This document shows positions 5,374 to 32,840 of a DNA stretch of 36,760 bases, one piece after another (position 1 is the first letter of the stretch; every line of letters begins with the position of its first letter). Made by a program: the position numbers and the translations under genes. The stretch comes from a virus (lineage: Duplodnaviria > Caudoviricetes). The stretch is taken from positions 1-36,760 of IMG/VR virus record IMGVR_UViG_3300036805_000152, one strand, 5' to 3'. Under the pieces are notes generated by a model. The model searched no databases. It was not told the origin of the DNA and saw nothing but the letters and a program-made list of their open reading frames with translations.

Positions 5374-5549
5374 TGCTGTACCTGGCGGGCGTGCCCGTTG
5401 AACCCGTGTCGCATGCTTTCGGCGCGCTGACCGTGACTGTGCAAACGGAGACCGGCAAGCAGCAGACTGTTCAGATTTCAGATCTAACCGCAGATGGCGG
5501 CCGCGCGGAGATCCAGGCCGCAATTACGACCGTGAGAACGGGCGGATGA
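5373..5549 (+). CDS. Hypothetical 58-aa protein (not in ORF track)
   Basis: MLYLAGVPVEP...VRTGG; TAATG and ATGA overlaps with both neighbours. Confidence 0.7.
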   Translation: MLYLAGVPVEPVSHAFGALTVTVQTETGKQQTVQISDLTADGGRAEIQAAITTVRTGG

Positions 5550-6013
5550 TCGAGTTCGAACGCACCACCGACTACGCTCTGGTGCGCGCGATTCTCACGC
5601 ATCCGGCCATCTATCCGCACATCACAGACGACGGCTGCCCCGCAGCGGACCAGTTCCAGGTGCTCGAACATCCGAGTATCTGGTACGTTCTGGTCCGAGA
5701 CGGCGCGGAAGTGCTTGGACTCTGGATGTTCGCACCGCAGGGTGCGGCGTGTTGGGAAGTACACACGTGCTTATTGCCGTGCGCCTATGGCGATCGAGCA
5801 AAGCAAGCTTCTCGCGCGATGGCTGAGTGGATCTTCACACACACCCCTTGCCAGCGCATCGTTACCACCGTACCCGCATATAACCGTCTCGCTCTCCGGT
5901 TTGCTGAACGCGCAGGCATGACCCGCTTCGGCACAAATGAGCGCAGCTACCTGAAGGGCAATACCCTTCACAACCAAATTCTCTTAGGACTTTCAAAGTG
6001 CCAGCAGCAATAG
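5546..6013 (+). CDS. GNAT-fold protein, P22 gp14-like
   Basis: WEVHTCLLP, NRLALRFAERAGM; position just before gp7-like gene. Confidence 0.78.
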   Translation: MIEFERTTDYALVRAILTHPAIYPHITDDGCPAADQFQVLEHPSIWYVLVRDGAEVLGLWMFAPQGAACWEVHTCLLPCAYGDRAKQASRAMAEWIFTHTPCQRIVTTVPAYNRLALRFAERAGMTRFGTNERSYLKGNTLHNQILLGLSKCQQQ

Positions 6014-6762
6014 CAATTCCGGCCATCATGGGCGCAGTCGGTATCGGCAGCTCCATAGCCAGCGGCGTGATGGGATCGAATGCGGCGAGTGACGCGGCAG
6101 ACGCGCAAGCGAGTGCCGCCAAATACGCAGCAGACAAACAGGCGCAATCAGCAGCCGATTCACTCGCGTTCCAAAAAGACGTTTTCAGTGTCGACCAGAC
6201 GAACCTGAAGCCTTATCTGGCAGCGGGCGCTACGTCGCTTTCGCAGCTCACCGCTGGTACAGCACCTGGCGGCGAGTTCAATTCTTCCCCCACGGCTGAC
6301 CAGATCCTCGCGCAAGATCCCGGCTATGCGTTCCGGCTCCAACAGGGCAGCCTGGCGCTCGAACGAGCGGAGTCGGCGGGCGGCAGCGTGGGATCGGGCG
6401 GCGCGCTCAAAGCGGCGGCGGCATACGGGCAAGACTACGCTTCGGGCGAGTTCAGCAACGCTTACAGCCGTTACATGACCACCCGGCAGAGCAATTACAA
6501 CAACCTGGCGAGTATCGCTGGTTTGGGGCAAACGGCCACGGGACAGGATGCCAGCGCAGGCCAAAGCGCGGCCTCGAACATCTCGAACATCAATACAACC
6601 TCGGCCAATATCGAAGGTCAAGACCTGATGGCGGCTGGAAATGCAACCGCTTCCGGGTATGTCGGGGCAGCGAACGCTTGGGGCGGCGCACTCAAGGGAG
6701 CGACAAACATCGGACTTTCGACACTCTCTCAAATAGGCAAGGCTTTACAGGACCAGGGATAA
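5998..6762 (+). CDS. DNA transfer/ejection protein, P22 gp7-like
   Basis: Ala/Gly/Ser-rich; LKPYLAAG, DPGYAFRLQQG, SGGALKA motifs. Confidence 0.82.
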   Translation: MPAAIAIPAIMGAVGIGSSIASGVMGSNAASDAADAQASAAKYAADKQAQSAADSLAFQKDVFSVDQTNLKPYLAAGATSLSQLTAGTAPGGEFNSSPTADQILAQDPGYAFRLQQGSLALERAESAGGSVGSGGALKAAAAYGQDYASGEFSNAYSRYMTTRQSNYNNLASIAGLGQTATGQDASAGQSAASNISNINTTSANIEGQDLMAAGNATASGYVGAANAWGGALKGATNIGLSTLSQIGKALQDQG

Positions 6763-6764
6763 CC

Positions 6765-8075
6765 ATGATCGACCCCAATATTGCGCTCTCGTACCGTCCG
6801 ACCGACCTCGGCATCGACACCCCGACACAGGTGATGACGTCCACGCAGCAACTCTCGAACCTGCAACAGGTTGGAAAAATGGAGCAGGCACAGACCACGG
6901 GCTTGACCCAGGAGAATGACGCCCGTGCGCTCCAGATGAAGACGGCGGCCGCGACGAACGCGGCGATTGCTGCCAATGCAAAACCGGATGCCAACGGCAA
7001 CGTAGTAATTGACCACGCGGGAGTGGTGAAGACACTCTCGCAGAACGGCATGGGGCTTGCCGCGCAGCAGTATCAGGATGCGCAGACAAAGCGCGACCAG
7101 GATTTAGCGAAGCTCACCGGTGACCAGCTCACCAATGCGGCCAAGCAACATCAAATGATCGAATCCGCACTTGGATCTGTGATCGGTTTGAAAGATCCGG
7201 CAGCGCGTCAAAAGGCATGGGACGAACAAGTCAAATTTGCCTACGACAACAAACTCGCAGCGAAGGGCACACTATCTCCGACTCCCCCAGACGACGCCAC
7301 GCTGCAAACAATGTTGTGGTCCTCGATGGATGGCCAGCAACAAATCCAGGAACGGCTTGCACAACAGAATGCAGCGTCAGCCGAGAAGCGGGCCGATGCA
7401 GCGGAAACCAAATCCGACGCTTACATGGATTACGTCACAGGGAAGAACCAGCCTAAACAGGCAGTGTTCACCAAGCAGTACGACAAAGACAATCACCCGA
7501 TCATGCAAGGTCCGGACGGCAAGCTGTATGTGGACACGTCCGTTACAGGCGCTCCGTATACCGATTCAACTACCGGTAAGGACCGCAAAGTAACACCGGA
7601 CGCAATGCTCGCGGACCGGCGCGCCAACGAGAAGGATTACGAAACCCAGGCGGGCGCGGAAATCAAAGCGCGGCAGGAAGCACAAGCCCTGCAAACGGCG
7701 CTGTCAGACGGACGCGGCTACGTCGATGAGAAGGGCAAGTACAAATCGTTTAGCTCGATGAAGCGCACGGATGGGCAAGACCTCACCGATGACGACAAGG
7801 CCGCCTACGTCCAGGACATGAAGCAGCGTCTTGCTGTTTCGCAGAACGCCATCGAAACCGCAGTCTCGAACAAGAACAACGCCATGCAGCGCAACGGCGT
7901 AACGCCGCAGGTTTCGACTCAGCAAGCGATCAACGCGTATCGCGGGCAGGGTGCACAGCAGAAGCCACCCGCCAACGTCATCGCGCAAATGCAGGTGGGC
8001 AAGGTCACCACTTTCAAAAACGGACAGAAGTGGATGAAGAACCAAGACGGTTCGGTTAAGCAAGTCACTCAGTAA
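6765..8075 (+). CDS. Ejection protein, gp20 position
   Basis: ATG 6765 (MIDPNIAL); Gln/Ala-rich helical protein between gp7-like and giant protein; TAATG coupling. Confidence 0.7.
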   Translation: MIDPNIALSYRPTDLGIDTPTQVMTSTQQLSNLQQVGKMEQAQTTGLTQENDARALQMKTAAATNAAIAANAKPDANGNVVIDHAGVVKTLSQNGMGLAAQQYQDAQTKRDQDLAKLTGDQLTNAAKQHQMIESALGSVIGLKDPAARQKAWDEQVKFAYDNKLAAKGTLSPTPPDDATLQTMLWSSMDGQQQIQERLAQQNAASAEKRADAAETKSDAYMDYVTGKNQPKQAVFTKQYDKDNHPIMQGPDGKLYVDTSVTGAPYTDSTTGKDRKVTPDAMLADRRANEKDYETQAGAEIKARQEAQALQTALSDGRGYVDEKGKYKSFSSMKRTDGQDLTDDDKAAYVQDMKQRLAVSQNAIETAVSNKNNAMQRNGVTPQVSTQQAINAYRGQGAQQKPPANVIAQMQVGKVTTFKNGQKWMKNQDGSVKQVTQ

Positions 8076-11000
8076 TGCCAAACGATTGGGACATAACCGG
8101 CGTCTCGGACGCACCGGCTAGTACGGGCGCGTCCGGCTGGGACATCGTAGACGGCGGCCAACCGAAGGCGGCAACGCCAGCGGCACCGCAGCCACAGCCA
8201 GCGAAACCCTCGGGACCCGCTCCGGTTCCGGGCGGCATGGCCCTTTCGACCCCGGTTAACTACGATCCGGTTCCCGTTCTGCAGCAAGGCTGGGAAAACC
8301 TCAAGGGCTTCTTCCGTTCGCTCGGCGAAGTGAACGCGAGCAACCCGGAGGCGGGCGGATCCACATTTCGGATGGGGACGAACGGCAAGACCGAAGTTAC
8401 CCCTCCCCCGACCGATGTCGACCTCACCAGGCTCGCGGACGCGGCACAGAAGCCAGCCCTGCCGATCAGCGCAGGCCTGCCGGCGTCTTCCCCGGGTGTG
8501 GTCAAGGGCGCGTTCAAGGGCCTTGAGAGTCTCACCACCCCGGAAAACGCGGAAGTCCTCGCGGCTACCTGGCCCGTTGGCACCGTCGCAAAGCTCACGA
8601 ACGTAGGACTCGATGCGGCAGCGATCCGTGGCGTGAATGCTGCGCTCGGCGGATACTTCGCAGCTTCGATGGCGAAGGGCACGTTTGACGACGTGCGGGA
8701 CGCCTACAACGCTTACAAGGCAGGCGACCTCGACCGCACCGCGGAACTGCTCGGCATGGGTACCGTCCAGGGATTGCTCGCCGGTGTCGGCGCATGGCAT
8801 GGCGTCCGGAACGTACGCGAGATCGGGAAGACCCAGATTCCCGTTACCCCGGCCCCGGAAGGGCCAGCGGCCCCGGAACCCGTGGCACCAGGGCCTCCTC
8901 CGGGTAGTGGGCCCGTGATCGACATTCAGGCGGAACCGGAGTCTCCTGCAGAAGCCCCCGCAGTTGCACCGGAGCCACCGGCACCGGCCCCGAAACCGAA
9001 ACGACAGCGGCCCGCGAAGGCAGTCAACACCCCTAGCGACTACGCGCAACCAGGCGCGCTGTCTACGCCCGCAGCAGCGGCACCACCAGCAGCGGCACCC
9101 GTGGCGGCACCACCAGCAGCGGCACCACCAGCAGCGGCACCACCAGCAGCGGCACCCGTGGCGGCACCACCAGCAGCGGCACCCGTGGCGGCGGCACCCG
9201 TGGCGGCGGCACCCGTGGCAGCGGAATGGGAACCCGTCAAAACGGAGGAACCTGAACCAGCTCCAGCGACACCAGCGGCGGCACCCGTGGCAGCGGAATG
9301 GGAACCCGTCAAAACGGAGGAACCTGAACCAGCTCCAGCGACACCAGCGGCGGCACCCGTGGCGGCGGAATGGGAACCCGTCAAAACGGAAAAATCAGTT
9401 CCACCCGCAGGCCTGCCGCACCCGAAGATGGCCGAACTGGTTGACGCCATTCAGGACCGCATCGCCAACGGCCCGCAGATAAAGGACACTCCTGCACTCG
9501 CGAAGCTTGCTTCTGACGTGCTCGGCGATGGACTGAGCAGCGGCAAGTACGACGTAAAAGATCTGTACGACGCACTCGAAACCGCAGTCAACCGGCACGT
9601 GTCGAGTGATGGCGGAATCATGCGGGCCGCACCTGCTGAAGCGCTGAAGGGTCTCCAGATCCTTACGTCCACTCTGCCCACGCAGACGGCGCGAACCAAG
9701 GAACAGAAGCAGTTCCAGCAATTCTCGACTCCTCCTGCACTGAGTTACGTCGCTGCGAAAGCGGCCAACATTCAACCGGGCGACACCGTGCTTGAACCGA
9801 GCGCAGGCACCGGCAGCTTAGCGGCGTTTGCGCGATCGGCGGGCGCACACGTGGAAACCAACGAGCTATCGCCCTCGCGTACTGCCTTCCTCGAACTCCA
9901 GGGCTACAAGCCCACGAGCGTGAATGCCGAACGCATCCGGGACCACCGGCCCGATCTGAAGCCGGATGTAGTGCTCATGAACCCCCCGTTCAGCGCGGAC
10001 GCGGGACGCACCGGCAAGAACAAGAACGCGATCGGCTACCAGCACGTACTCAGTGCGCTTGACACACTGCCCGCTGGCGGCCGCCTCGTGGCAATTCTCG
10101 GGCGCGGCGCTTCGTTCGATCACGTCACCGCTAACCCCTTCTGGCGAGGGATTAAGGAACGCGGCGCAGTGGTGCGGGCGAATCTCGGCCTTGATGGGTC
10201 TAATTACGCCAAGTACGGCACCACCTTCGACAACCGGCTTATAGTGGTCGATAAGGTTCCTTCAGACGTTCCCCCGCCAATCACAGGGGACTACAAGGAC
10301 CTTGCGGACGCACTCGATGCCCTTCAGCCAGTCATCCACGACCGAAGATCAACTCAACGAAGCGATAGCCAGGAACGGGGCGAAGTTTCTGTGGGATCAG
10401 ATTCTGAGCGCAGTGGCGATAGCCCTCGACCAGAACTACAAGAAGATCCAGGTGGAGATGGAGAGCGCGGGAGTGGACGCGGGGGACCCGGACAACCTGA
10501 TGCACATGTTGAGCCGGTTGGACCCAGAACCATCGCTGAAGGCGATCCAAGACCAGAACTCGAATCTGGACCTGCTGACGCCATCACGCCATCCCCTACC
10601 GATCACGCTGGCGTTGATCGACCTGCTGAGCGACAGCAACCCCTCATTGAGTTAACCACCCGCGATCGTTCGAACGAGACCGTTGAGCGGGAGGGCGCGT
10701 ATCAACAGTACCGGCCCGAAAAGCTTTCCACCGGCGTAAGCCATAAGCAGGCCACCGGGACAGGTTTGGTCGAAACCGGCGCTCTCGCTTCCGTTGAACC
10801 TCCCGATATCGACTACCGGCCCCACATCCCGGCCTCGGTCATCGCCAGCGGCCACATCACGGATGCGCAGCTAGAAGCCATCACCTACGCGGGACAAGCC
10901 AACTCACACGTATTGCCCAACGGCAAGCGCGCGGGCTACATGATCGGCGACGGGACCGGCGTAGGAAAGGGAACCGAAGCCGCAGGTATCGCACTCGACA

Positions 11001-14000
11001 ACTGGAACCAGGGGCGGCGTAAGATCCTTTGGCTCTCGCTGAAGCCCGGACTCATCCGGCAGGCGCAGCGTGATCTCGATTGGGTAGAGGCACCCATCAA
11101 GGCCAAGATGCTCAACGATTGGGGATTCGACGAACCCGTTGACCACGAGGGCGTAGTATTTGCCACTTACTCGATGTTGCATCGCACATCCGCCAAGCAG
11201 GGCGAGGGTTCGCGTCTCGATCAGCTTCTCAAGTGGAGTCCCGACGTAATCCTGATGGACGAATCGCACGCGGCCAAGAATGCCGTAGTTGCGGGCGGCG
11301 GCGATGACGAGGAAGAAAGCGGCGGCAGGGTACGGCTAAAGGGCACGACCAGCAAAGCGGGTGAAGCCGTCCTCGACCTCGATAACAAGCTCCCGAATGC
11401 CCGTGTAACCTACTTCAGCGCCACCGCGTTCACCGACGTTGCAAACCTCGGGTATGCCTCACGGCTCGGGCTGTGGGGACCTGGGACCAGCTTTCCGGCT
11501 GGCTTCAAAGAGTTCATGGTCGAAGTCGACCGTGGCGGCTACGGCGCGATGGAACTCGTCTCGAAAGAGATGAAGGCGCTCGGACGTTACACGGCCCGTC
11601 AGATTTCGTTTGATGGCGTCGAGTACCGGGAAGTCACGGCACATCTGTCAGCCGCACAGCGGCAAATGTACGACGCGGGCGTGAAGGTGTGGCAAGAAAT
11701 CCTGAAGAACATCGACAAAGCCATCGAAGCACTTACAGGCGAAGACGACACCAAGAGCAAGGGCTTAGCCAAGGGGCGCGCCAAAAGCCAGTTCTGGAGC
11801 ACGAACCAACGGTTCTACCGGGCCATCATCACGGCGATGAAGATCCCTACCGTGATCGAGGAAATCGAGGGGGCACTTGAACGCGGTAACAGCATCTTCC
11901 TCGACTTAGTAAGTACGGGTGAAGCGGAAGCGCAGCGCCAGCTAGTCAAGGCGGCGGAAGAAAATCTGAGCTTCGAAGAACTGGATATGTCGGCTAAGTC
12001 GATGGTCATGAACTATCTGGACAACGCTTTCCCGACGCAGATCATGGAGGATTACAAGGACCCGGACACGGGTTCGATTCGATCTCGTCCAGTAATCGAC
12101 GAGCAGGGAAAGCCCGTGCATTCGCAGGAAGCGATTGCGATGCGCGAGGCGCTGAAGAAAGAACTGGACAAGATCCAGCTCCCGCAGTCACCGCTCGACC
12201 AGATCATCGACTACTTCGGCCCGGATGCCGTGGCGGAAATCTCGGGGCGCACGTCTCGCATTGTGCAAGACGAGAAATCCGGGCGGCCCGTCGAAGTCAA
12301 GCGCGTGAAGCCCAAGGGCGCAAGCGCGAAGGACGTGAACGACTGGGAACGCCACAACTTTCAGAGCGGAAAGAAGCGTATCGCGGTAGCTTCGGGCGCG
12401 GGCGGGACCGGCTTTGACTTCCATTCGGACAAGCGCAGCGCCAACCAGCAGCGCAGAACCCACATCGTCCTCGAACCGTCATGGTCGGCTGACCAGCAAA
12501 TGCAGAAGTTCGGGCGCACGCACCGCACGAACCAGGCGAACGCACCTGAGTATGTCCTGGTTGCTTCGGATCTCGGCGGGGAGAAGCGCTTCATTTCGGC
12601 GATTGCCTCGCGCATCGCCTCGCTCGGAGCACTGACCCGTGGCGAACGCAAGGCAGGCGGCGGCGCGGCGGAAATGCTGGCCCGCTACAACCTCGAAGGC
12701 AAGTACGGAGAAGCGGCAAAACAGGCGTGGTTCAAGGCATTGAACGGCGGCCAAGCCATCCTGCAAGACGATGTGACGGTCAATCTGCCGAAGCCACCGG
12801 CAGAACTCGAAGAGATGAACCGAGAGGACCTGGCGCGCATGTTAGGCGTACTACGCGAAGGGCAGAGCGGCAACACGATCAACGACTCACTCAGCCTGAA
12901 GCAGTTTTTGAATCACGTGCTGAACCTGCCGACTGATGTACAGCAGTTGACCTTCAACTACTTCATGGAGCTGTTCGACCGCATCATTGAGACGGTCAAA
13001 CAGGCGGGTGCTTACGACGAAGGCACGCAGGAACTCAAAGCGCTGCGCGCGGAGGTCACAGATAAGGATGTAATCCGGCGCGGGGAAAGCGGCGCCGCGA
13101 CGAACCACTTGTCTATCGACGCTCATTTTCCGCTCGAAAAGAACGACTGGGAAACCGCAGTGCATCACGCGAACCAGGCCCCGGACCCATCGGATTACAA
13201 CCAGCGGCAATATGCAGGGCTGTACCGCAATCTGAAAAGCAGCCAATTGTGGATGGCGCGCAAAGCGGCCAAGGACATTACCGACCAGGCGTCGGGCGCA
13301 GTCATACCGGCGATGGCGCTACTCGGCCCGAAGCAGGGTAGCCGTCAAGTCGTTCCCGTGGCGCAGTTGTCAGACCCCAAGAGGTTCGAGCGCGTCCAGA
13401 ACTACGACGCCAAGAAAACATGGGAACAAGCGCTGAGCGAACTCCCCGACTCCGAACAGCAAGAGCTGCACATTATCAACGGTTCCGTGCTGCCCGTGTG
13501 GAAGCAGCTCGGCGCATCGGGCGACGGCTGGCGCATGAACGTCGTCCAGATCCACACCGAAAACCAGGGCACTGTTTCCGGAGTTCTGATCCCGGCTGAA
13601 CAGATCCAAACGCTGAAGGATTCGCTCGGCGGCGGCGGCGCTTCCTCCCCGGCACTCATCCTCAATCGGATCTGGAGGCAAGGCGAACGTATCCAGCTCC
13701 GTGGCGCTTCCCTTTCCGCAACCCGCGTGATGGGAGAGCGGGCGATCGTCATTCAACCGGCGAAGCAGGCGGGCCGCACTGTGCTCGAAGGACTCGGTAT
13801 TCCGCACATGGAAACCGCATCGAGCGTGCGCTATTACCTGCCCTATGCGGATGATCCTAGCGACGAGCTGCAGACCTCAACCGTCGAGAAGCTAACCAAA
13901 ATCCTCCAGGCGTTCCCGCTTCAGGGCGACACGGCCCCACAATCCGGGGCGCAGACCATCACCAGCGGTCTCACGTTCGGTGATGCGTCCAAGCTGTTCA

Positions 14001-16396
14001 CCGGCCACAAGGTCGGCGAACCGGAACGGACCTATTCAGGGATAGGGGCACTCAAAAGCTACACCGTACGCAATCTGTCTCAGCTCGAAGAAGTTTCACC
14101 AGCGGCGCACCAGGCGGCGGTACGGGCGGCCAGTTCGCGGGCGCAGTCGGCAGCGCTAATGCGCTCGGCCTGGCCTGCCGTGTCGAAGGCGCTCGGGGCA
14201 GTGAAGCCGGATGACTTCCGGCGCGCGCTAATCGAATCCCGCTTGCAGGGCGTGGAACAGCGCTGGAACGAACTCGCCGAAGTGACGCACAACGTTCCAG
14301 CGGACGAACTCCTCGATTGGGTAAGCTCCGGACCGCTGCAAGTGCTCGACTCAATGAGCGAAGACGGGGACATGGCGCAGCAAGCGGCGGCGCTAGCGAG
14401 CAACCTCCAGGTACTTCCGAAACAGAAGTGGAATCGTAAAGCGATTCAGCGGTTGCGGGACCTGGTGGGCGGCGCGTTCGAGGACGCGGCGGGCAGCGTG
14501 CACCACATGATGACTCCGGACGAGTTCCAGGACATCACCCAGGACCCCGGATTCCAGCGCGGCCTCGCCGTCTACAAGCGCGAGATCGAAGAACCCCTGG
14601 CACGCAATCACGAGATGAACGAGGGCGTGTTTTCGAAGGCGCTCGGCCCACTCGACACCTACTACCCGTTGACTCCGATCCGGGCGGAAGACGAAGCGGC
14701 CCGAGTGATGGGCGTGCGGCGGGGCTTTAAGAAGCCCTCGAACATCGCGAACAAGTTCACAACCGGCCTAGCGGATGACTACGATCACACGTTACCGGCG
14801 TTCAAGGACAAGGCGGAAGCCGCGATCCGGGTGAACGACAAGGCGGCGCTGATCGAGGAATTGCACAACGCCGGCATCTTGCGGAAGCTGAAGCCGGATC
14901 AGCGCGCGGATACGGTTCACTTCGAAGGGCGCGAGTTCGCGGCCAAGGTGGTGAGTGTCGGACCAGCTCGCGTGATTGCCGGGGACGACGGCAAGGTGAT
15001 CCGTATCCCGGAGCAACGGGCCGCGATTCCGGAGCCGTTCTATCACGAGCTAAAGCCGATGCTCGAACCGGACGCTAAGCTTCCACCGGGCCTATTCCAG
15101 CGTTTGCTGCACGTGGTCAATGAGGCGACGCTGGCAGGACCAGCGGAAGCGGTGATCCACTCGCACAACCTGGTGGGCGCGCTGATTGCCAATACCCCAT
15201 TTCTCGGGGCGGACTGGGCAACGCAGACGATCGGCAACACGCCGGTAACAAAGACATTCACCGCACTGTTCAAGCTGGCGGCCACCGATCCAATGAGCGA
15301 TAACGCGGCGCGTGATCTGCGCGAGATGGCGAAACTCGGCCTGCTGCCCGAGCGCTTTGGCGCGGAAACCTACAGCCAGAAGTACGCCACGATGACGGGC
15401 GCGGAAAAGAAAACGCCTCTCCTCAATTGGGGACCTGTCCTTTATGGTCCGAAGGGCGTCGACGTTCGGGCGCGTTTGTTGATGTACCGGCTGGCGCGTG
15501 AAATCAATCCTGGTGCGACACCGCTGGAGACTTACAAATTCGTCAACCAGCTCGGGAACTATACGGAAGCCTTGCAGGGACACTTGGAACGCTCGCTGAA
15601 GCGCACCGGCTTATCGCGATTTGTGACGGCGGGCTCCACGATGTTGCGGAACGGCGTGGACGCGTGGCTTGGCACAGGCAGCGGATCGGGACCTGGCGGC
15701 GGGGCAAAGAACCGCATCAGGCAAATGCTTTCGGGCGGCGCGATCGGGCTGCTCGCCGCGTGGGTCTTCGCTTACAAGGCATCCACTGGCAAATGGCCCT
15801 GGCAGGACAAACGCTCGAAGCTCCTGAAGATTCCCGTCAGTGAGGAAATCCGGCGCTCGAAGCTCGGCCTCGCGATCTGGGGACACGATACCCGCAAAGT
15901 GGGGTACGTCAACTTCGGCGTGTTCAGTCCGCTGGTTGCGCGCGGCGCTCGCGGCCTCGGAATCGACGGAAGCTACAACACCGCCGTCGAGGGCGGCAAT
16001 CTGGCACAGATCGGCGAGGCAGCTAAGCGCGATGTCGCAAACTCGGCCATGCACCCGGTTGCAGGACCAGCGGCGCGCGTGCTCCTGGTTGGAGTCACGG
16101 GCAAACAGCCGTACTTAGTCGATGACAGCGACCAGGGCGGCAGCAAGTTCCTATCGGCACTGCCGAAGAAAGCACCCATCGGCAGCGAGGTACTGAGCGC
16201 GGCCAAGCAGCTCAATAGCTTCTATGGCAACGTAGGCGCGGCCACGGGTATGGGCGGACCTGGCGAGGACAAACACGCCACGGCAACCGACCAGATCGTT
16301 AAAGCCGTGATCGACATGACCGGCATCTCGGGCGGCGCAAGCGACCCCTACGCAGCACAGCAAGCGCTCGCGAAAGAGCGCAGGACACACAGGTAA
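8075..16396 (+). CDS. Giant ejection/polyvalent (DarB-like) protein: N6-adenine DNA methyltransferase plus Strawberry-notch SF2 helicase
   Basis: VLEPSAGTG and MNPPFS MTase motifs; IGDGTGVGKG, MDESH, SAT, QKFGRTHRTNQ helicase motifs; third ejection-protein slot. Confidence 0.88.
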   Translation: MPNDWDITGVSDAPASTGASGWDIVDGGQPKAATPAAPQPQPAKPSGPAPVPGGMALSTPVNYDPVPVLQQGWENLKGFFRSLGEVNASNPEAGGSTFRMGTNGKTEVTPPPTDVDLTRLADAAQKPALPISAGLPASSPGVVKGAFKGLESLTTPENAEVLAATWPVGTVAKLTNVGLDAAAIRGVNAALGGYFAASMAKGTFDDVRDAYNAYKAGDLDRTAELLGMGTVQGLLAGVGAWHGVRNVREIGKTQIPVTPAPEGPAAPEPVAPGPPPGSGPVIDIQAEPESPAEAPAVAPEPPAPAPKPKRQRPAKAVNTPSDYAQPGALSTPAAAAPPAAAPVAAPPAAAPPAAAPPAAAPVAAPPAAAPVAAAPVAAAPVAAEWEPVKTEEPEPAPATPAAAPVAAEWEPVKTEEPEPAPATPAAAPVAAEWEPVKTEKSVPPAGLPHPKMAELVDAIQDRIANGPQIKDTPALAKLASDVLGDGLSSGKYDVKDLYDALETAVNRHVSSDGGIMRAAPAEALKGLQILTSTLPTQTARTKEQKQFQQFSTPPALSYVAAKAANIQPGDTVLEPSAGTGSLAAFARSAGAHVETNELSPSRTAFLELQGYKPTSVNAERIRDHRPDLKPDVVLMNPPFSADAGRTGKNKNAIGYQHVLSALDTLPAGGRLVAILGRGASFDHVTANPFWRGIKERGAVVRANLGLDGSNYAKYGTTFDNRLIVVDKVPSDVPPPITGDYKDLADALDALQPVIHDRRSTQRSDSQERGEVSVGSDSERSGDSPRPELQEDPGGDGERGSGRGGPGQPDAHVEPVGPRTIAEGDPRPELESGPADAITPSPTDHAGVDRPAERQQPLIELTTRDRSNETVEREGAYQQYRPEKLSTGVSHKQATGTGLVETGALASVEPPDIDYRPHIPASVIASGHITDAQLEAITYAGQANSHVLPNGKRAGYMIGDGTGVGKGTEAAGIALDNWNQGRRKILWLSLKPGLIRQAQRDLDWVEAPIKAKMLNDWGFDEPVDHEGVVFATYSMLHRTSAKQGEGSRLDQLLKWSPDVILMDESHAAKNAVVAGGGDDEEESGGRVRLKGTTSKAGEAVLDLDNKLPNARVTYFSATAFTDVANLGYASRLGLWGPGTSFPAGFKEFMVEVDRGGYGAMELVSKEMKALGRYTARQISFDGVEYREVTAHLSAAQRQMYDAGVKVWQEILKNIDKAIEALTGEDDTKSKGLAKGRAKSQFWSTNQRFYRAIITAMKIPTVIEEIEGALERGNSIFLDLVSTGEAEAQRQLVKAAEENLSFEELDMSAKSMVMNYLDNAFPTQIMEDYKDPDTGSIRSRPVIDEQGKPVHSQEAIAMREALKKELDKIQLPQSPLDQIIDYFGPDAVAEISGRTSRIVQDEKSGRPVEVKRVKPKGASAKDVNDWERHNFQSGKKRIAVASGAGGTGFDFHSDKRSANQQRRTHIVLEPSWSADQQMQKFGRTHRTNQANAPEYVLVASDLGGEKRFISAIASRIASLGALTRGERKAGGGAAEMLARYNLEGKYGEAAKQAWFKALNGGQAILQDDVTVNLPKPPAELEEMNREDLARMLGVLREGQSGNTINDSLSLKQFLNHVLNLPTDVQQLTFNYFMELFDRIIETVKQAGAYDEGTQELKALRAEVTDKDVIRRGESGAATNHLSIDAHFPLEKNDWETAVHHANQAPDPSDYNQRQYAGLYRNLKSSQLWMARKAAKDITDQASGAVIPAMALLGPKQGSRQVVPVAQLSDPKRFERVQNYDAKKTWEQALSELPDSEQQELHIINGSVLPVWKQLGASGDGWRMNVVQIHTENQGTVSGVLIPAEQIQTLKDSLGGGGASSPALILNRIWRQGERIQLRGASLSATRVMGERAIVIQPAKQAGRTVLEGLGIPHMETASSVRYYLPYADDPSDELQTSTVEKLTKILQAFPLQGDTAPQSGAQTITSGLTFGDASKLFTGHKVGEPERTYSGIGALKSYTVRNLSQLEEVSPAAHQAAVRAASSRAQSAALMRSAWPAVSKALGAVKPDDFRRALIESRLQGVEQRWNELAEVTHNVPADELLDWVSSGPLQVLDSMSEDGDMAQQAAALASNLQVLPKQKWNRKAIQRLRDLVGGAFEDAAGSVHHMMTPDEFQDITQDPGFQRGLAVYKREIEEPLARNHEMNEGVFSKALGPLDTYYPLTPIRAEDEAARVMGVRRGFKKPSNIANKFTTGLADDYDHTLPAFKDKAEAAIRVNDKAALIEELHNAGILRKLKPDQRADTVHFEGREFAAKVVSVGPARVIAGDDGKVIRIPEQRAAIPEPFYHELKPMLEPDAKLPPGLFQRLLHVVNEATLAGPAEAVIHSHNLVGALIANTPFLGADWATQTIGNTPVTKTFTALFKLAATDPMSDNAARDLREMAKLGLLPERFGAETYSQKYATMTGAEKKTPLLNWGPVLYGPKGVDVRARLLMYRLAREINPGATPLETYKFVNQLGNYTEALQGHLERSLKRTGLSRFVTAGSTMLRNGVDAWLGTGSGSGPGGGAKNRIRQMLSGGAIGLLAAWVFAYKASTGKWPWQDKRSKLLKIPVSEEIRRSKLGLAIWGHDTRKVGYVNFGVFSPLVARGARGLGIDGSYNTAVEGGNLAQIGEAAKRDVANSAMHPVAGPAARVLLVGVTGKQPYLVDDSDQGGSKFLSALPKKAPIGSEVLSAAKQLNSFYGNVGAATGMGGPGEDKHATATDQIVKAVIDMTGISGGASDPYAAQQALAKERRTHR
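9070..9390 (+). repeat. Compound coding repeat: 15-bp (AAAPP/AAAPV) units and 72-bp (AAPVAAEWEPVKTEEPEPAPATPA) units
   Basis: GAATGGGAACCCGTCAAAACGGA at 9224, 9296, 9368. Confidence 0.92.
10317..10655 (+). CDS. Putative overprinted gene nested in another frame of the giant protein
   Basis: ATG 10317 (TTG 10302 alternative); G/C-ending codons and helical-protein composition in this frame while the host frame is low complexity. Confidence 0.6.
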   Translation: MPFSQSSTTEDQLNEAIARNGAKFLWDQILSAVAIALDQNYKKIQVEMESAGVDAGDPDNLMHMLSRLDPEPSLKAIQDQNSNLDLLTPSRHPLPITLALIDLLSDSNPSLS

Positions 16397-16404
16397 CGAA
16401 ACAA

Positions 16405-18762
16405 ATGAAACGACTTCTCTTACTCGCACTGGCGGGCGTGGCGGCTTTTGCCCAAAACGCGGCTTTGATGCCGATGCCGAAGCTCCAGTTCTTCGACGGG
16501 AACGGCGTCCCACTCGCGGGCGGCTCCATCTACACCTACGCGGCGGGCACCAACAACCCGCTGGCGACCTTCACGGATTCAACCGGGGGCACCCCGAACC
16601 AGAACCCGGTTCCACTCGATTCAGCGGGACGCGCATCCATCTGGATTGGCAGCAGCTCCTACAAGGTCATCGCGCAGGATCAGTACGGCGTGATCCAGTG
16701 GACGCAAGACAACGTATCGAGCACTGCAATTGCTACCGGCGTGAGTCTCACGTCTAACGGCGCATCGCTGATCAAGTGGACCGCCCCTAACGGCACGGCG
16801 CGGACCGTCGCGGCCAAGCTTGGGGATTACATCTCTTTGCTCGATTACGGGGCACTCTGCGATGGCGTCACCGATGACACTGCGGCGTTCCAGCGGGCGC
16901 TCGCGGCCGCGCAAGCGGCGGGAAAACCGCTGTACACCCCGGATGGCTTGACCTGTCTGATCGGGCCAACGACTACCAGCGGCAATCTGTTCTTGCGAGG
17001 CTTCGGAACGCTGAAGCTCTACAGCACTTCGATTTATCCGAGCAACTTCGCGCTCCTCACGGTCAACGGCGGAACCGTCAACGTGGCTGATGTGACCTTC
17101 GACCAGAACATGACTTCCGGCACCGCGACGGGAAGCTGGACGGACGGCACGGAACCCGTGGCGACCAACGGCTACTTTTACTTGCGGGTGAATAACTCCA
17201 CGAACGTCGAACTGGGCGATGTGGTGTTCCAGAACATGAAGCGCGGCGTGCTGCTCAATAGTTCGTCGCACGTGTCCATTCATGACTGCACCGGCATGTT
17301 GCAGGGCAGTGCGACCACCAACCTGATTGCGCTCGACAACGTAACCGATATCGAGATGCACGCGAACCGCTTTTACGGTGACACCTGGGACGTGAACCCC
17401 ACGACCTACTCGGTTAACGGGCTTCTCGGCTGGAACGTGAACAGCGGCCATATCTCGGGCAATATCTGGAAGGGCTTTCAGATCGTGCTGCGCAGCGTGA
17501 ACCCTTATGTGCTGCCAGCGGGCCAAGCCACAGACCTGACGTTCTCGGACAACGTTGTGGACACCCCCGTGGCGGACACGGCGCTTGTGGGCTTTTACAA
17601 AGTCGTCGCGATCGGCAACCGCATCCGGCAATCGGGCGATATGGGTCTGACTTTCGACAATTCCAGTTATGTGACCTCGGGCAACAACTTCATCGAATCT
17701 CCGCACACCGGCTGCATGAACATCTCGGGTGCTGTCAGCGTCACGGCCACCGGCAATATCTGCAGGAATCCGGCAAGAGCTTACGCGCAGTGGAATGCGA
17801 TTCGTGCTCCAAGCTTTGGCGGTTCGTGGATGTCTTGTATGACGGTCAGCTTGAACACGGGTGCGCTCGGCGTTTCGAGTGGCGTCACCATCACCGGCAA
17901 TTCCTGCTGGATGGATGTGCTGCCTCCTGTCACCGATGGCCTTGGCCAAGTGCGCAGCAGAGTGGGCGGGATCATGGTGGATCCCACCACGTCTACACCC
18001 TCGCAGGTAGTCATTTCAAACAACTTCGTTTACGCGGATGAGACGAATATGCCGAATTTTTTCATTGCGGCTCCCACGGCGGCCATCACGTACTCAGCCG
18101 TCACCGGCACCCCACGGGCGGGCGAACTGTTCAAGAGCACGGCGGGTAACCAGTTCCGTCTCGTAACAGCAGTTAACAATTTCATCTGGATGCGCGACTA
18201 TATCGGCTTCCCGCTCGGCAACGAGGTTTACACCGGCCAGTCGAGCAGCGCGACATTGACGATTGCGGCGGCCATTCAACCCGGCTTCCAGGGTGTGTAC
18301 TTCGACCACCAGAACCATGACTACATAACGGCTGCCGTAGACAGCTACCGGGGCAGCAACGTTTTGGTTCCGAATGCGTTCAACACGGCGGCTCCCACCG
18401 TTGCGTTCGGTGACCCGAACACGGGAATTTCCAGCGAGAGTTCCGGCGCGCTCGACTTCTGGACGAAGACCAGGGGCGGCACGATCAAGCTCTGGGGCAA
18501 TGTGATCGACCGCGCTAGCGGTGCTGGATACGGCGGCGGCGGTTCGCTGCATGATCTCGCGTTCGATGCGCCCAAGGGCGGAAGCTGGTACTACCTTCGG
18601 GGAATATCGAGCTATCTGGGAAGCCAGTCAATTGATTTCTGGTTCGACTCGAACGGTGTGCTGAGTATGCCTGCCCTCAAGTCCAACACGGGTGTGCGGT
18701 ACGCATGTTTCGACACTACGGGCAAACTGGTTTCGCAAACGTCCGCTTGCTCGGGAACCTAA
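16405..18762 (+). CDS. Tailspike/depolymerase (right-handed beta-helix) with N-terminal signal peptide
   Basis: PKLQFFDGNGVPLAGGSIYTYAAGT anchor-type domain; LDYGALCDGVTDDTAAFQRA pectate-lyase-3-like start; Asn/Gly-rich rungs; MKRLLLLALAGVAAFA|Q leader. Confidence 0.85.
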   Translation: MKRLLLLALAGVAAFAQNAALMPMPKLQFFDGNGVPLAGGSIYTYAAGTNNPLATFTDSTGGTPNQNPVPLDSAGRASIWIGSSSYKVIAQDQYGVIQWTQDNVSSTAIATGVSLTSNGASLIKWTAPNGTARTVAAKLGDYISLLDYGALCDGVTDDTAAFQRALAAAQAAGKPLYTPDGLTCLIGPTTTSGNLFLRGFGTLKLYSTSIYPSNFALLTVNGGTVNVADVTFDQNMTSGTATGSWTDGTEPVATNGYFYLRVNNSTNVELGDVVFQNMKRGVLLNSSSHVSIHDCTGMLQGSATTNLIALDNVTDIEMHANRFYGDTWDVNPTTYSVNGLLGWNVNSGHISGNIWKGFQIVLRSVNPYVLPAGQATDLTFSDNVVDTPVADTALVGFYKVVAIGNRIRQSGDMGLTFDNSSYVTSGNNFIESPHTGCMNISGAVSVTATGNICRNPARAYAQWNAIRAPSFGGSWMSCMTVSLNTGALGVSSGVTITGNSCWMDVLPPVTDGLGQVRSRVGGIMVDPTTSTPSQVVISNNFVYADETNMPNFFIAAPTAAITYSAVTGTPRAGELFKSTAGNQFRLVTAVNNFIWMRDYIGFPLGNEVYTGQSSSATLTIAAAIQPGFQGVYFDHQNHDYITAAVDSYRGSNVLVPNAFNTAAPTVAFGDPNTGISSESSGALDFWTKTRGGTIKLWGNVIDRASGAGYGGGGSLHDLAFDAPKGGSWYYLRGISSYLGSQSIDFWFDSNGVLSMPALKSNTGVRYACFDTTGKLVSQTSACSGT

Positions 18763-18848
18763 TCCCGCGTTCGACGGCGGAACCCGGCGCGCAGGTACGC
18801 GATCAGCACCACGCTAAGCACCAGCCAACCTAAGATCCACCACCACAC
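18759..18848 (-). CDS. Possible 29-aa single-TM peptide
   Basis: GTG-WWWILGWLVLSVVLIAYLRAGFRRRTRD; start uncertain. Confidence 0.4.
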   Translation of the reverse strand: MWWWILGWLVLSVVLIAYLRAGFRRRTRD

Positions 18849-18909
18849 AACCAAACAATAACGCCCGCGCGTGACCAGGCTTTCTGGCACTCGCGGGCGC
18901 TTTTTGCGT

Positions 18910-19194
18910 TTATGGAAGACTTTCACTCGACCGAAGAAGACACCCTTTCGATTCCGGCGCTGAGCTGGCTCTCGAATTGAATGCTTGCACGATGACAACG
19001 GCCAGTTCTTTGACAGGGCGGGAAGGAGAATACCCGATAAGCGCTCCCCGTTCTAAGATCTGGTCACAGCGGCGAATGTCGATTTCCGGGCCGCCTTCTA
19101 AGAGTCCGTACATCTTGCAATCAGCTATGGCGCGAAGCCCCGCAGCAAGGTCCACGGCTTCCTGCCATTGCTTCGACCCGCGCGGATCTTTCAT
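18910..19194 (-). CDS. Hypothetical protein
   Basis: 94-aa ORF, ATGA overlap with upstream gene. Confidence 0.7.
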   Translation of the reverse strand: MKDPRGSKQWQEAVDLAAGLRAIADCKMYGLLEGGPEIDIRRCDQILERGALIGYSPSRPVKELAVVIVQAFNSRASSAPESKGCLLRSSESLP

Positions 19195-19784
19195 CCCCGG
19201 TACTCCTCAAGGCTGGCCCGATTGACCAGCAACCGGCCCTTCGGCCCCAGGTGATCGGCCACAATCTTCTCCTCCGTGATGGCGGCAAGCAGCGCGGGAC
19301 GCGGCAGACCGGAATAGCGGGCCGCCTGGCGCAGCGTCAGCCAGAGCTTCGTCCGCGCCTCTTCGAGTTTGACCCGGCTTTCCTCGTGAGCGGCCGTTTT
19401 TTCGGAGGCGGCGGCCAGCAGGCGAGTTGTTTCCTCCTGGGCGCGCTGACCCCGTTGCGCGAACTCCATGAAAGCCTGCCACCACACGTCTGCGTCTCTG
19501 GCCGGCACGATGCCATTCTCCCGACGCGGTTCCGGTTTTTTGTTGAGGATTCCGCTGTTTTTCACCCGTTCCAGGGATGCCAGCGAGATGACTCGAATGT
19601 CCGGACCACCGGAACGCGGCACTAGGCGAGATTCGACCTTTTCGCGTTCGATCAACCGATCCAGGGTGTTTTTTGAGGTTTTCAGGTACTGGAGGGCTTC
19701 GGGCTTGCGGACATAGCCCGGAGGGATCACATCGCTTTTTGGCGGCATAACCCCATGTTCTGAGGTTGTGACCCTACGGGGCAA
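19191..19784 (-). CDS. DNA-binding protein with two MerR/excisionase-type HTH domains
   Basis: KPEALQYLKTSKNTLDRLI and LTLRQAARYSGLPRPALLAAI separated by a helical linker; start may be ATG 19749 region. Confidence 0.7.
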   Translation of the reverse strand: MPRRVTTSEHGVMPPKSDVIPPGYVRKPEALQYLKTSKNTLDRLIEREKVESRLVPRSGGPDIRVISLASLERVKNSGILNKKPEPRRENGIVPARDADVWWQAFMEFAQRGQRAQEETTRLLAAASEKTAAHEESRVKLEEARTKLWLTLRQAARYSGLPRPALLAAITEEKIVADHLGPKGRLLVNRASLEEYRG

Positions 19785-20331
19785 CGGCTGGAGGTACTGG
19801 AGCGAGGGCGCGCAATTGTTCGGCGAGCGATTCGCACTCGGCCTTTACGTAGGGAAGGTCGCGATAGTGCTCCCGCATCCCAAGCCTATCGCGCATTTCC
19901 TCCACCATTTGCGGCCACTTGGGAATGTCAAGAAACGGCGACGACAACGGTTTCAGCTTCTTCATTCGGGCTTCCATCGCGGGCGCCAAATCGAAAGCAT
20001 GGGCGCACTCGAACCCAAGCCACCACACGTCGTCGGGCATTCCGGGTTCCGGAACGTGGCAGATGTGGCCCCGACACTTCGCGGAGTAGTTCACCCCGCC
20101 GTGGACTTCAAGATCGTCGATGGGGCTTCCTTCCGCGTCCCATTCCTGTCCATACAGCGGGTGCGCGCGATCGACGCCCACGTATGCGCAGAGGCTTCCA
20201 AAACTCGGATGACGGGTAATCAGGCACGCATAGCCCGCATGCTGCCACTGCACGCGATCGGGTTCAGTCTGCCAAGGGCCTTCACCCCAATCGCTTTTGT
20301 CGTACTGCAATTCAATCGGTTGCTCGCTCAT
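19774..20331 (-). CDS. Conserved phage hypothetical protein
   Basis: GGGAGGAG SD; LCAYVGV..HPLYG, VHGGVNY, WWLGFECAH motifs. Confidence 0.8.
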   Translation of the reverse strand: MSEQPIELQYDKSDWGEGPWQTEPDRVQWQHAGYACLITRHPSFGSLCAYVGVDRAHPLYGQEWDAEGSPIDDLEVHGGVNYSAKCRGHICHVPEPGMPDDVWWLGFECAHAFDLAPAMEARMKKLKPLSSPFLDIPKWPQMVEEMRDRLGMREHYRDLPYVKAECESLAEQLRALAPVPPAVAP

Positions 20332-30487: not shown

Positions 30488-31073
30488 GTTTGACCAAATA
30501 ACACATCCTGTACAGCGGGCTTTCCTCGCGGCCTACGTTGCCAAGCCCTCGATCGTGGCTGCGGCGCAAGCGGCGGGCTGTTCGAGGGAAGCTCATTACG
30601 ACTGGAAGCGCGACCCCGAGTACGCGCGCGCGTTTGCCGAAGCCGTTATCGCGGCGGGCGACACGATCGAAGCCGAAGCGGTACAGCGCGCGACTGAGGG
30701 CCTCTGGGAACCCGTGCTCTACAAGGGAGAACCCGTCATGGTCGACGGCGTACCACTGATGAAGCGCAAGGTCTCCGACCGGCTGATGAACACGTTGCTG
30801 GTGGGCTTCAAGCGCGAGAAGTACGGCAAGCTGGTCACCCACACCGGCACCGTCACGCACGCGCACAGCGTGGACCTATCCGAACTCGAAGAAGAAGAAC
30901 TCGAAGCGCTTGAACGAATCCTTGGTAAAGCTCGCGTCAATGAGTCCGCGTCTTCTCAGCGCGACGAAGACGCTGGAGAAGATCACACCGGAAGCGATCC
31001 AAGCGGAGCGGATCCGCAGAGCGGGCCGGATGATGGACCGGATGTTCCCGACGACGGGGACTCTGAGGCGTGA
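30486..31073 (+). CDS. terS: Terminase small subunit
   Basis: QRAFLAAY...AAQAAGCSREAHYDWKRDPEY HTH; EAEAVQRATEG; SDRLM; REKY; directly upstream of terL. Confidence 0.85.
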   Translation: MFDQITHPVQRAFLAAYVAKPSIVAAAQAAGCSREAHYDWKRDPEYARAFAEAVIAAGDTIEAEAVQRATEGLWEPVLYKGEPVMVDGVPLMKRKVSDRLMNTLLVGFKREKYGKLVTHTGTVTHAHSVDLSELEEEELEALERILGKARVNESASSQRDEDAGEDHTGSDPSGADPQSGPDDGPDVPDDGDSEA

Positions 31074-31779
31074 GCTTTACACCAAGCACCTTGAGTTCTT
31101 TGCAGCGGGCGCGGCGCACAAAGAGCGTGCCTTTATCGCCGGTAACCGAGTCGGTAAGACTCGCACCGGCTGCTACGAAGACACGCTGCACCTAACCGGG
31201 CAGTATCCAGACTGGTGGGAAGGCCGGCGCTACAAATGCCCCACGGACGGATGGGTTGCAGGCGATACCGGCAAAACGACACGCGACATTCTCCAGCTTG
31301 AACTGCTCGGAAGATGGGGCGATTTCGGCACCGGCTTACTCCCGCGTGATTGCATCCTCGACTGGACCCCAAAGGGTTCGGGCGTTCCGCGTGCCGTCGA
31401 TCAGCTCATGGTCCGACACGTCTCGGGAGGGGTTAGCGTGCTCGGGTTCAAGAGCTACGCCGAAGGACGCGAGAATTTCCAGGGGACTGCCAAGCACTTC
31501 GTTCACTTCGATGAGGAATGTTCGCTCGAAGTGTGGACCGAAGCGCTCATGCGAACGATGATCGTGCCCGGAGATGCGGACGGCGGAATCGCCTATCTCA
31601 CGTTCACACCGCTGCTTGGATGGTCCGAAGTGGTCACGTCATTTTTGGACACGATCGAACCCCCGCGTAAACTGAACTCCAAAGGAGAATCAGATGCCGA
31701 CACCAGTGAAGGCACCGCTAAAGAAGTCCGCAGCGAAAGCGGCCACGGACGCGAAGGCAGTAGAGCCAGCGAAACGTGA
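30940..31779 (+). CDS. terL: Terminase large subunit, ATPase part (P22 gp2-like)
   Basis: AGNRVGKT Walker A, FQG, HFDEE Walker B, LTFTPLLG coupling motif; ends before the nuclease domain. Confidence 0.9.
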   Translation: MSPRLLSATKTLEKITPEAIQAERIRRAGRMMDRMFPTTGTLRRELYTKHLEFFAAGAAHKERAFIAGNRVGKTRTGCYEDTLHLTGQYPDWWEGRRYKCPTDGWVAGDTGKTTRDILQLELLGRWGDFGTGLLPRDCILDWTPKGSGVPRAVDQLMVRHVSGGVSVLGFKSYAEGRENFQGTAKHFVHFDEECSLEVWTEALMRTMIVPGDADGGIAYLTFTPLLGWSEVVTSFLDTIEPPRKLNSKGESDADTSEGTAKEVRSESGHGREGSRASET

Positions 31780-31816
31780 ACCCCCGTCCATGGGGCTAGG
31801 CAAAGTGAAGAAGTAA
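31694..31816 (+). CDS. 40-aa Lys/Ala/Pro-rich peptide (not in ORF track)
   Basis: AAAGGAG SD; MPTPVKAPLKKSAAKAATDAKAVEPAKREPPSMGLGKVKK; followed by terminator. Confidence 0.62.
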   Translation: MPTPVKAPLKKSAAKAATDAKAVEPAKREPPSMGLGKVKK

Positions 31817-31852
31817 AAGAACCTTCTCTCATCTCCCAGATTGCTCAATTTC

Positions 31853-31881
31853 GGGCGCAGCTTCGGCTGTGCCCTTTTTTT
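31853..31881 (+). terminator. Intrinsic terminator between the terL halves
   Basis: GGGCGCAGC-TTCG-GCTGTGCCC then a T7 tract. Confidence 0.82.
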
Positions 31882-32079
31882 ATGTCCAACACACCCAATC
31901 CGAACCGCAAGCCCGCACAGAAGACCACACCCGTCATCGAAATGTTCAAGCTGTACCGCGATGACGACGGCCACGTGCTGCTGAAACACGGCACGATCCA
32001 CGCTGACGACTACGAGCGTATGCGTGAGGCGCATCCGGAGCTGGCGCTTCCCGAAGTGCAAGCGATTCCGTTCGCCTAG
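31882..32079 (+). CDS. Hypothetical 65-aa protein
   Basis: ORF with G/C-ending codons between the terL halves. Confidence 0.62.
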   Translation: MSNTPNPNRKPAQKTTPVIEMFKLYRDDDGHVLLKHGTIHADDYERMREAHPELALPEVQAIPFA

Positions 32080-32120
32080 TGGACTGGGCGGGCATCCCGC
32101 GTTCTCACCACACCCAGATT

Positions 32121-32840
32121 ATGAGCAAGTACGTCGTGCAAGCCGGTTGGGATCACGCACCGCACCTGTCCGAAGAATCGAAAGCCGAACTGCTTTCAGC
32201 GATTCCGCCGCACGAACGCGAGGCGCGCAGGAACGGCGAACCGACACTAGGCGCGGGGAAGATCTACGAGATCCCTGAAGCCGATTTCGTCATCGAACCG
32301 TTCGAAGTCCCTACCTTCTGGTTCAAGAGCTACGGCCTCGATGTGGGCTGGAACCGCACCGCTTGTATCTGGCAGGCGCACAACCGCGAAACCGACATTG
32401 TTTATTTCGTTGACGAGCACTACGGCGCAGAGCAAGCCCCGGAGCTGCACGCTGTCAGCATCAAGGCGCGCGGCGAGTGGATACCCGGCGTAATCGACCC
32501 GGCAGCACGCGGACGGCAGCAAGGCGACGGCAAGCGGCTGATCGAGCAGTACATCGCGGCGGGCCTCAACCTCGAGGCGGCGGATAACAGCGTCGAAGCT
32601 GGCATTTACGAGATTCGCCAGCGCTTACTCGGCGGGCGCTTGAAGGTTTTCAAGTCGCTGGCGAACTGGCTGAAAGAGTACCGGCTGTATCGCAGAGACG
32701 AGAAGGGCAAAGTGCACAAGAGCAACGATCACGCGCAAGACGCGGGCCGCTACAACATCATGAGCGGTTTGGCGATTGCGAAGCAACCACCGATCAAGCG
32801 CACCCCGTATCAAACTGGCGGCCGCGTTTTCACCGGCTGA
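32121..32840 (+). CDS. terL: Terminase large subunit, lid plus nuclease part
   Basis: MSKYVVQAGWDHAPHL...PHEREAR..GEP..GAG; GLDVGW; NSVEAGI; NDHAQDAGRY; GTG 32079 alternative start. Confidence 0.9.
   Translation: MSKYVVQAGWDHAPHLSEESKAELLSAIPPHEREARRNGEPTLGAGKIYEIPEADFVIEPFEVPTFWFKSYGLDVGWNRTACIWQAHNRETDIVYFVDEHYGAEQAPELHAVSIKARGEWIPGVIDPAARGRQQGDGKRLIEQYIAAGLNLEAADNSVEAGIYEIRQRLLGGRLKVFKSLANWLKEYRLYRRDEKGKVHKSNDHAQDAGRYNIMSGLAIAKQPPIKRTPYQTGGRVFTG

Follow-up and report, generated by a model that had tools for sequence, protein, structure and literature searches.

The window analyzed here, a whole virus record of 36,760 bases, has a P22-like layout, whose module genes are those for the terminase, a P22-type portal, a scaffold, a P22-type coat, head closure, a GNAT protein and a DNA-ejection protein. 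A GDSL-type acylhydrolase gene lies directly 3' of the coat gene, at 958-2316. The giant gene in Table 1 encodes, in order, a Pro/Ala-rich N-terminus, an adenine methyltransferase (MTase), a linker, a strawberry-notch SF2 ATPase and an uncharacterized C-terminus. The MTase carries FQQFSTP at aa 547 and NPPF at aa 636, both before the linker, in line with the TP plus NPP(Y/F) motifs by which section 14 of PMC5512222 defines an adenine MTase; C-terminal to it lie Pfam matches to AAA_34 (E 2e-93) and Helicase_C_4 (E 1e-77). A general Pfam search at E 0.001, with no dedicated profile, gave no LPD36 match at the N-terminus. Pro/Ala tandem repeats with strongly A-ending codons occupy 9035-9400. Judged by synteny, namely its position after the DNA-ejection gene, the giant methylase-helicase is a putative ejected virion protein.

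Wholly inside the giant gene, an open reading frame (ORF) in the +1 frame begins at the C-terminal end of the MTase domain and is co-extensive with the linker of the main frame. Its product is acidic (net charge -9, pI 4.3) and has no Cys. The first-pass annotation had placed this ORF at 10302..10655; the frame is indeed open over that stretch, but the ATG at 10317 is a likelier start than the TTG at 10302, because the nested ORF of the homologous locus L170 starts in the same register. The Shine-Dalgarno (SD)-like site of the window consists of GGA only, and the stricter GGAG/GAGG/AGGA pattern seen in homologs is absent here. No promoter or terminator-like site was found at 9800-11000, and no Rfam match anywhere in the window. 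Contigs placed on the window added no independent coverage of the nested stretch.

Table 1. Features of the giant methylase-helicase gene and its upstream context
Feature	Position	Strand	Remarks
Giant host gene	8075..16396	+	2773 aa; last of the putative ejection-protein genes
N6-adenine methyltransferase domain	9674..10318	+	aa about 534-748; TP motif, NPPF; PHROG matches
Weak Shine-Dalgarno-like site	10305..10308	+	GGA core, 8 nt 5' of nested ATG
Main-frame linker, R/S/G/D/P/E-rich	10316..10660	+	aa 748-862; co-extensive with nested ORF
Nested +1-frame ORF	10317..10655	+	ATG to TAA, 112 aa, wholly inside 8075-16396
Strawberry-notch ATPase/helicase lobes	10763..13027	+	AAA_34 aa 897-1201, Helicase_C_4 aa 1373-1651
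Upstream context, head-morphogenesis GNAT gene	5546-6013	+	family match
Upstream context, DNA-ejection gene	5998-6762	+	family match
Upstream context, 465-aa gene	6678-8075	+	without family match

Codon signature of the nested frame

The open +1 stretch runs from 10245 to 10655 (136 codons, 24 of them 5' of the ATG) and is the second longest of 98 such stretches in the giant gene, after the repeat region. The stretch in the repeat region, at 8919-9482 (187 open codons), was rejected as a gene, since it is a shadow of the repeats and translates to Q/H/R repeats. From the sequence alone, the first-pass annotation had described a low-complexity main frame between the MTase and helicase domains facing a +1 frame with mostly G/C-ending codons. 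Both descriptions hold: the linker is R/S/G/D/P/E-rich over aa 748-862, and per-frame GC3 is 0.79 in the +1 frame against 0.33-0.38 in the main frame over aa 761-840. Only one other 40-codon main-frame window has GC3 below 0.5, in the Pro/Ala repeat (0.42, A-ending codons).

How much of this could arise by chance? In a null model that fixed the main-frame residues and resampled synonymous codons in 20,000 draws, the +1 frame of the window was still open in 3.3% of draws; the main-frame GC3 of 0.38, set against a null of 0.70 +/- 0.04, was reached in 0 of them. The open +1 frame by itself is modest evidence, and the codon shift is far beyond chance. Among the 8 window genes scanned, the linker ORF is the sole one with the codon signature of a nested ORF.

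The same shifted-frame signature had been claimed where the small terminase gene overlaps the large one (30940-31073). It is present there in a weaker form, terS GC3 falling from 0.72 to 0.57 with terL, in the +1 frame, at 0.80, but the arrangement is an ordinary end overlap. The large terminase itself is spread over two ORFs within 30940-32840, an ATPase part at 30940-31779 (Terminase_6N) and a nuclease part that starts at an ATG near 32122 (Terminase_6C). Two small ORFs lie between these parts, as does a hairpin, near 31856-31882, that includes a T run and has no Rfam match; the ATPase ORF has an S/G/E/R-rich tail overlapping a small basic ORF in another frame.

Homologous loci and the nested protein family

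Viral, metagenome and genome collections yielded 168 loci, 169 with the window; 7 without an MTase anchor and 14 duplicates were left out, and 148 were kept. A nested ORF, defined as a +1 ORF of at least 90 codons starting 15 to 45 codons after the MTase anchor, was found in 135 of these 148 loci, which span many phyla and are related, their counts thus not being independent events. One of the 135, the 242-codon ORF of L125, shows no GC3 shift and was dropped as a false positive. The remaining 134 nested ORFs encode 103 to 160 aa, and 123 of their products are net negative. They start with ATG in all but two cases (132/134), and 112/134 have an SD motif (GGAG/GAGG/AGGA) 5' of the start, which lies at codon 27 after the anchor in 90/135 loci. 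The distance from the end of the nested ORF to the helicase Walker A is about 99 codons (median). Where the host frame is intact (138 loci), the nested ORF is present in 130/131 long-linker loci, the window included, and in 0/7 short-linker loci; the sole long-linker exception, L075, carries another insert there. Negatives among the 148 loci also include five that end at contig edges and L066, which lacks the helicase.

Stops in the +1 frame of homologs and a lack of frame-specific codon bias had been named beforehand as findings that would speak against a gene. The frame proved open in all but that one of the intact long-linker loci, where the synonymous null expects about 34/130 open frames by chance (median null probability 0.20 across loci), and among 3357 control windows from the flanking domains only 101 contain a +1 ATG followed by 90 open codons. 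The +1 GC3 exceeds the main-frame GC3 in 134/134 nested ORFs, and main-frame GC3 falls at the linker with z below -2 in 121/130 loci. Selection in both frames was also to be checked: in 25 disjoint pairs (2888 codons), chosen and aligned by +1 protein identity and hence biased toward the +1 frame, differences by +1 codon position number 574/471/951, the third position varying most, and identity is 72% for the +1 protein, 56% for the main-frame linker and 85% for the MTase. The homologs, together with +1 protein homology, strongly support the first-pass proposal of a real nested gene, and we regard the gene as very likely real.

The nested ORF of the window belongs to a small divergent group (group B), whose members were grouped by eye and BLAST, consistent with the host-protein tree. 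A leave-one-out profile of 8 other group-B ORFs scored it at 35.1 bits (E 1.1e-9), and the best of 200 shuffles at 6.8 bits. Its five closest host proteins (P0002-P0006) are 55-79% identical to the window protein; a protein-only back-coding test on these relatives showed an excess in one and was flat in four. Profile comparison gave no link between group B and the main family (family A), with an hhalign probability of 0.7%. Nested proteins of family A have a mean column identity of 18%, compared with 56% for the MTase and 50% for the ATPase. The family-A profile matched 1249 clusters at 50% identity (E <= 0.001), and the 9 matches looked up, all unnamed or "hypothetical," lie on contigs of 0.6-7 kb; this is what one would expect if gene callers chose the +1 frame only where the host gene is truncated. 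Two database proteins are unusual and may be artifacts of assembly or gene calling: P0146 (252 aa) has a tandem duplication of the nested domain, and P0255 (554 aa) has a family-A domain in frame at its C-terminus, after another low-complexity stretch.

The first-pass reading of the +1 product as a helical protein agrees with AlphaFold, which predicts six helices both for the window ORF (pLDDT 81.2, pTM 0.68, 8 alignment rows) and for a family-A member (pLDDT 93.3, pTM 0.86, 80 alignment rows). Searches with the window ORF alone gave no match in viral contigs, a protein search, ESM Atlas, Pfam, NCBIfam, PHROGs or an exact look-up, and P0122 had none in ESM Atlas. The 80 family-A members share no Pfam match (10 single-member matches, best E 0.007) and have none in PHROGs; the best E against PDB sequences was 0.16, and Foldseek of the family-A model against PDB and BFVD returned nothing at E <= 0.001. 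The best VIA structure search Z scores, 3.5 for family A and 5.3 for the window (rmsd 3.1, 75 aligned), are below the meaningful level. The VIA top-50 lists of the two models have 11 entries in common, most with similar chain ranges, a hint from predicted models that groups A and B may have one fold.

The losses of the nested gene were placed on a FastTree phylogeny computed from 130 host proteins after removal of the linker (midpoint root, with a long-branch warning for the window). Five Acidobacteriota copies that lack the nested ORF group as one clade within group B (local support 97 and 99), and L125 and L075 fall inside family A, suggesting that the nested gene was lost at least three times. 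The four nested-less Acidobacteriota copies examined encode 1479-1627 aa, with element cargo or conjugation genes near 3/4 of them and no virion genes among the neighboring ORFs of at least 170 aa. Two of these copies (L243 and L245) adjoin Prok-E2/ThiF (PRTRC-like) genes and a DNA polymerase III beta clamp gene. No group-B copy was found elsewhere in the 5 genomes without the nested ORF, a search of incomplete genomes with no positive control. The nested ORF is also absent from three more distant plasmid strawberry-notch genes, from P1 darB and from two distant MTase-bearing phage giants with no helicase Walker motif behind the MTase. In L066, from 3360, the MTase is followed by unrelated domains in place of the helicase, and its nested ORF keeps the start and about the first 30 family-like codons, then breaks off. 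Loci selected by the helicase, many of which overlap other loci, have the MTase upstream in 56/57 cases, the remaining one ending at a contig edge.

Two carriers of the layout come from cultured sources. In the cultured Bacteroides phage BS-TP4 (L247, PQ571277.1), a +1 ORF of about 119 aa, at about 10032-10391 and missing from the annotation, lies between the MTase and Walker A in the 5391-codon gp3; it matches neither the group A nor the group B profile. The Methylotuvimicrobium plasmid MEALZ_p (L171, NC_016108.1), with an IncP-like tra operon, has an unannotated family-A nested ORF within 12223-19866, inside MEALZ_RS20390.

Probable translation and possible role of the nested protein

How would the small protein be made, and what might it do? 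The 112-codon +1 ORF is very likely translated, starting at its own ATG. Ribosomes would initiate internally on the mRNA of the giant gene, and both products would thereby be linked in time and place. The acidic protein, predicted to be helical, may act as a chaperone or inhibitor that binds the helicase, or the MTase and helicase together, during synthesis of the giant enzyme and its loading for delivery, a delivery suggested by the ejection-module position and, in plasmid relatives, by the tra operon. In that case, the R/G/S/D/P-rich linker would be what it costs to translate across a small gene in another frame; since the linker and the nested gene are present or absent together, the low complexity of the linker is likely a by-product of the hidden gene. 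The term "overprinted," applied to this ORF at the outset, probably points the wrong way, the +1 frame appearing to be the conserved, foldable one to which the linker accommodates.

A role as chaperone or inhibitor of the giant host enzyme in the producing cell, as the first-pass annotation had suggested, is the reading that we prefer, with a probability of roughly 0.5. It is based on the strict linkage, the co-loss with the helicase in one locus, the acidity and three precedents in which a nested and a host product are paired. The partner role is weakened by two observations. Nested proteins diverge much faster than the MTase and ATPase, unlike an active-site plug, and the enzyme stays intact without the nested gene in the 7 short-linker loci, L075, the three plasmid genes and P1 darB. 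A mutual-information screen of MTase, ATPase and nested protein over 65 paired rows gave top z scores of 6.1 and 5.8, versus 7.4 for the MTase-by-ATPase control, hence no coevolution signal of the nested protein above that control.

Fast divergence with kept length and acidity would suit a variable target, and a real nested protein with another target is possible, if not the reading that we would choose. Such a protein could be an acidic, DNA-mimic-like inhibitor of a host defense or restriction enzyme, or a loading adaptor that acts on a capsid, portal or secretion component, in the manner of P1 Ulx, which aids DarB localization and is encoded by a separate small gene beside darB (PMC9024508); nesting would only keep the protein linked to the cassette. 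The gene-less clade, which sits in element cargo regions and not in virion modules, is in keeping with this. However, members of one family are found both in phage modules and in an IncP-like tra operon, whose loading machines differ, and no copy of the nested family was found away from the linker among the loci examined.

The first-pass annotation had also offered an alternative C-terminus reached by frameshift. A +1 ribosomal frameshift near the MTase end would fuse the MTase to the helical domain, without the helicase, and the 24 open codons 5' of the ATG in the window would allow it; P0255, with its family-A domain in frame, shows such a fusion to be imaginable, though not after an MTase. 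Against it stand the nearly invariant ATG and the frequent SD motif, a +1 stop at most 5 codons upstream of the start in 45/134 loci, and a slippery-like motif in 27/134 only. Independent initiation is favored over frameshifting, which now appears quite unlikely. About as unlikely is a mainly regulatory use of the nested ORF, its product being incidental, in which ribosome traffic would tune the synthesis of the helicase part or its co-translational folding: the ORF always starts at the MTase end and ends about 99 codons (median) before Walker A, but family A shows a conserved residue pattern and a fold predicted with confidence, both needless for a mere spacer. That there is no gene at all, a hydrophilic linker poor in Leu/Ile/Val/Met leaving the +1 frame open by composition, is scarcely credible, since composition does ease openness (null probability 0.033 in the window) but leaves unexplained the fixed ATG position and SD, the main-frame GC3 fall, the +1 protein homology and the confident predicted folds.

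The methylase-helicase cassette is thought to be delivered by phages and conjugative elements against host restriction, and a nested partner protein would add a missing subunit to it. The hidden gene would explain the odd composition of the MTase-helicase linker, and it represents a widespread protein family hidden from annotation inside full-length genes. To our knowledge, few examples have been worked out of a long bacterial or phage gene that lies entirely within another on the same strand, with both frames under selection. The layout is present in a cultured phage and in a plasmid of a cultured methanotroph, which makes a direct test possible. In its widest and rather doubtful form, our proposal is that the cassette is a two-protein system. 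Its small subunit would have a fold not yet described and would serve its client, within whose gene it is encoded, as a dedicated inhibitor or loading chaperone; the giant gene would have arisen by reading through the small one, and the low-complexity linkers found in giant phage and plasmid proteins that are delivered would be shadows of hidden genes.

Comparison with known nested genes and methylase-helicase proteins

The layout resembles traH/traI of the IncP plasmids RP4 and R751, where TraH is a small acidic protein encoded in another frame inside traI and the nested and host products act together (PMC7314908). In both cases, a small acidic protein is nested in a large DNA-processing gene of a mobile element. 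The tra operon of MEALZ_p has two unannotated nested genes, the family-A ORF in the methylase-helicase gene and traH in traI (6404-6760), the latter a 119-aa +1 ORF with an SD and raised +1 GC3 that matches a record annotated traH; the RefSeq record of the plasmid lists neither. However, the host gene of traH encodes a relaxase and that of the window ORF an MTase-helicase, the TraH homolog is rich in Cys whereas the window ORF has none, and the profiles of A and B show no sequence likeness to the alternative frames of one traI (E > 0.5).

Rz1 in Rz, of the two-component spanins, is likewise a +1 embedded phage gene, whose product forms a complex with that of its host gene and which gene callers often miss (PMC6139136). 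Unlike the soluble-looking, Cys-less window ORF, Rz1 is a lysis lipoprotein, and here it is the embedded frame that appears structured and the host frame that is of low complexity. TnpV inside ICE helicases is a further lead. In Synechocystis, internal out-of-frame ORFs of slr0489, slr1079 and slr1082 are translated and their products interact with the host protein (bioRxiv 10.64898/2025.12.20.695498); these are other genes, and the words "helicase" and "methylase" are absent from that text.

For the host protein, the closest description is the polyvalent MTase-helicase dyad of the P1 DarB type, an adenine MTase with TP/NPPF followed by an SF2 ATPase, in some cases of the strawberry-notch kind (PMC5512222). 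The window protein likewise has a TP plus NPPF MTase and then an SF2 helicase, but P1 darB shows no nested ORF, and by word search neither a nested gene nor the linker is mentioned in the main text of that article. A literature search at the abstract level, with subscription journals thinly covered, found no description of a nested ORF in an MTase-helicase linker. Set beside these systems, the ORF is very likely a real nested gene, of a family apparently not yet described, in an arrangement for which there are precedents.
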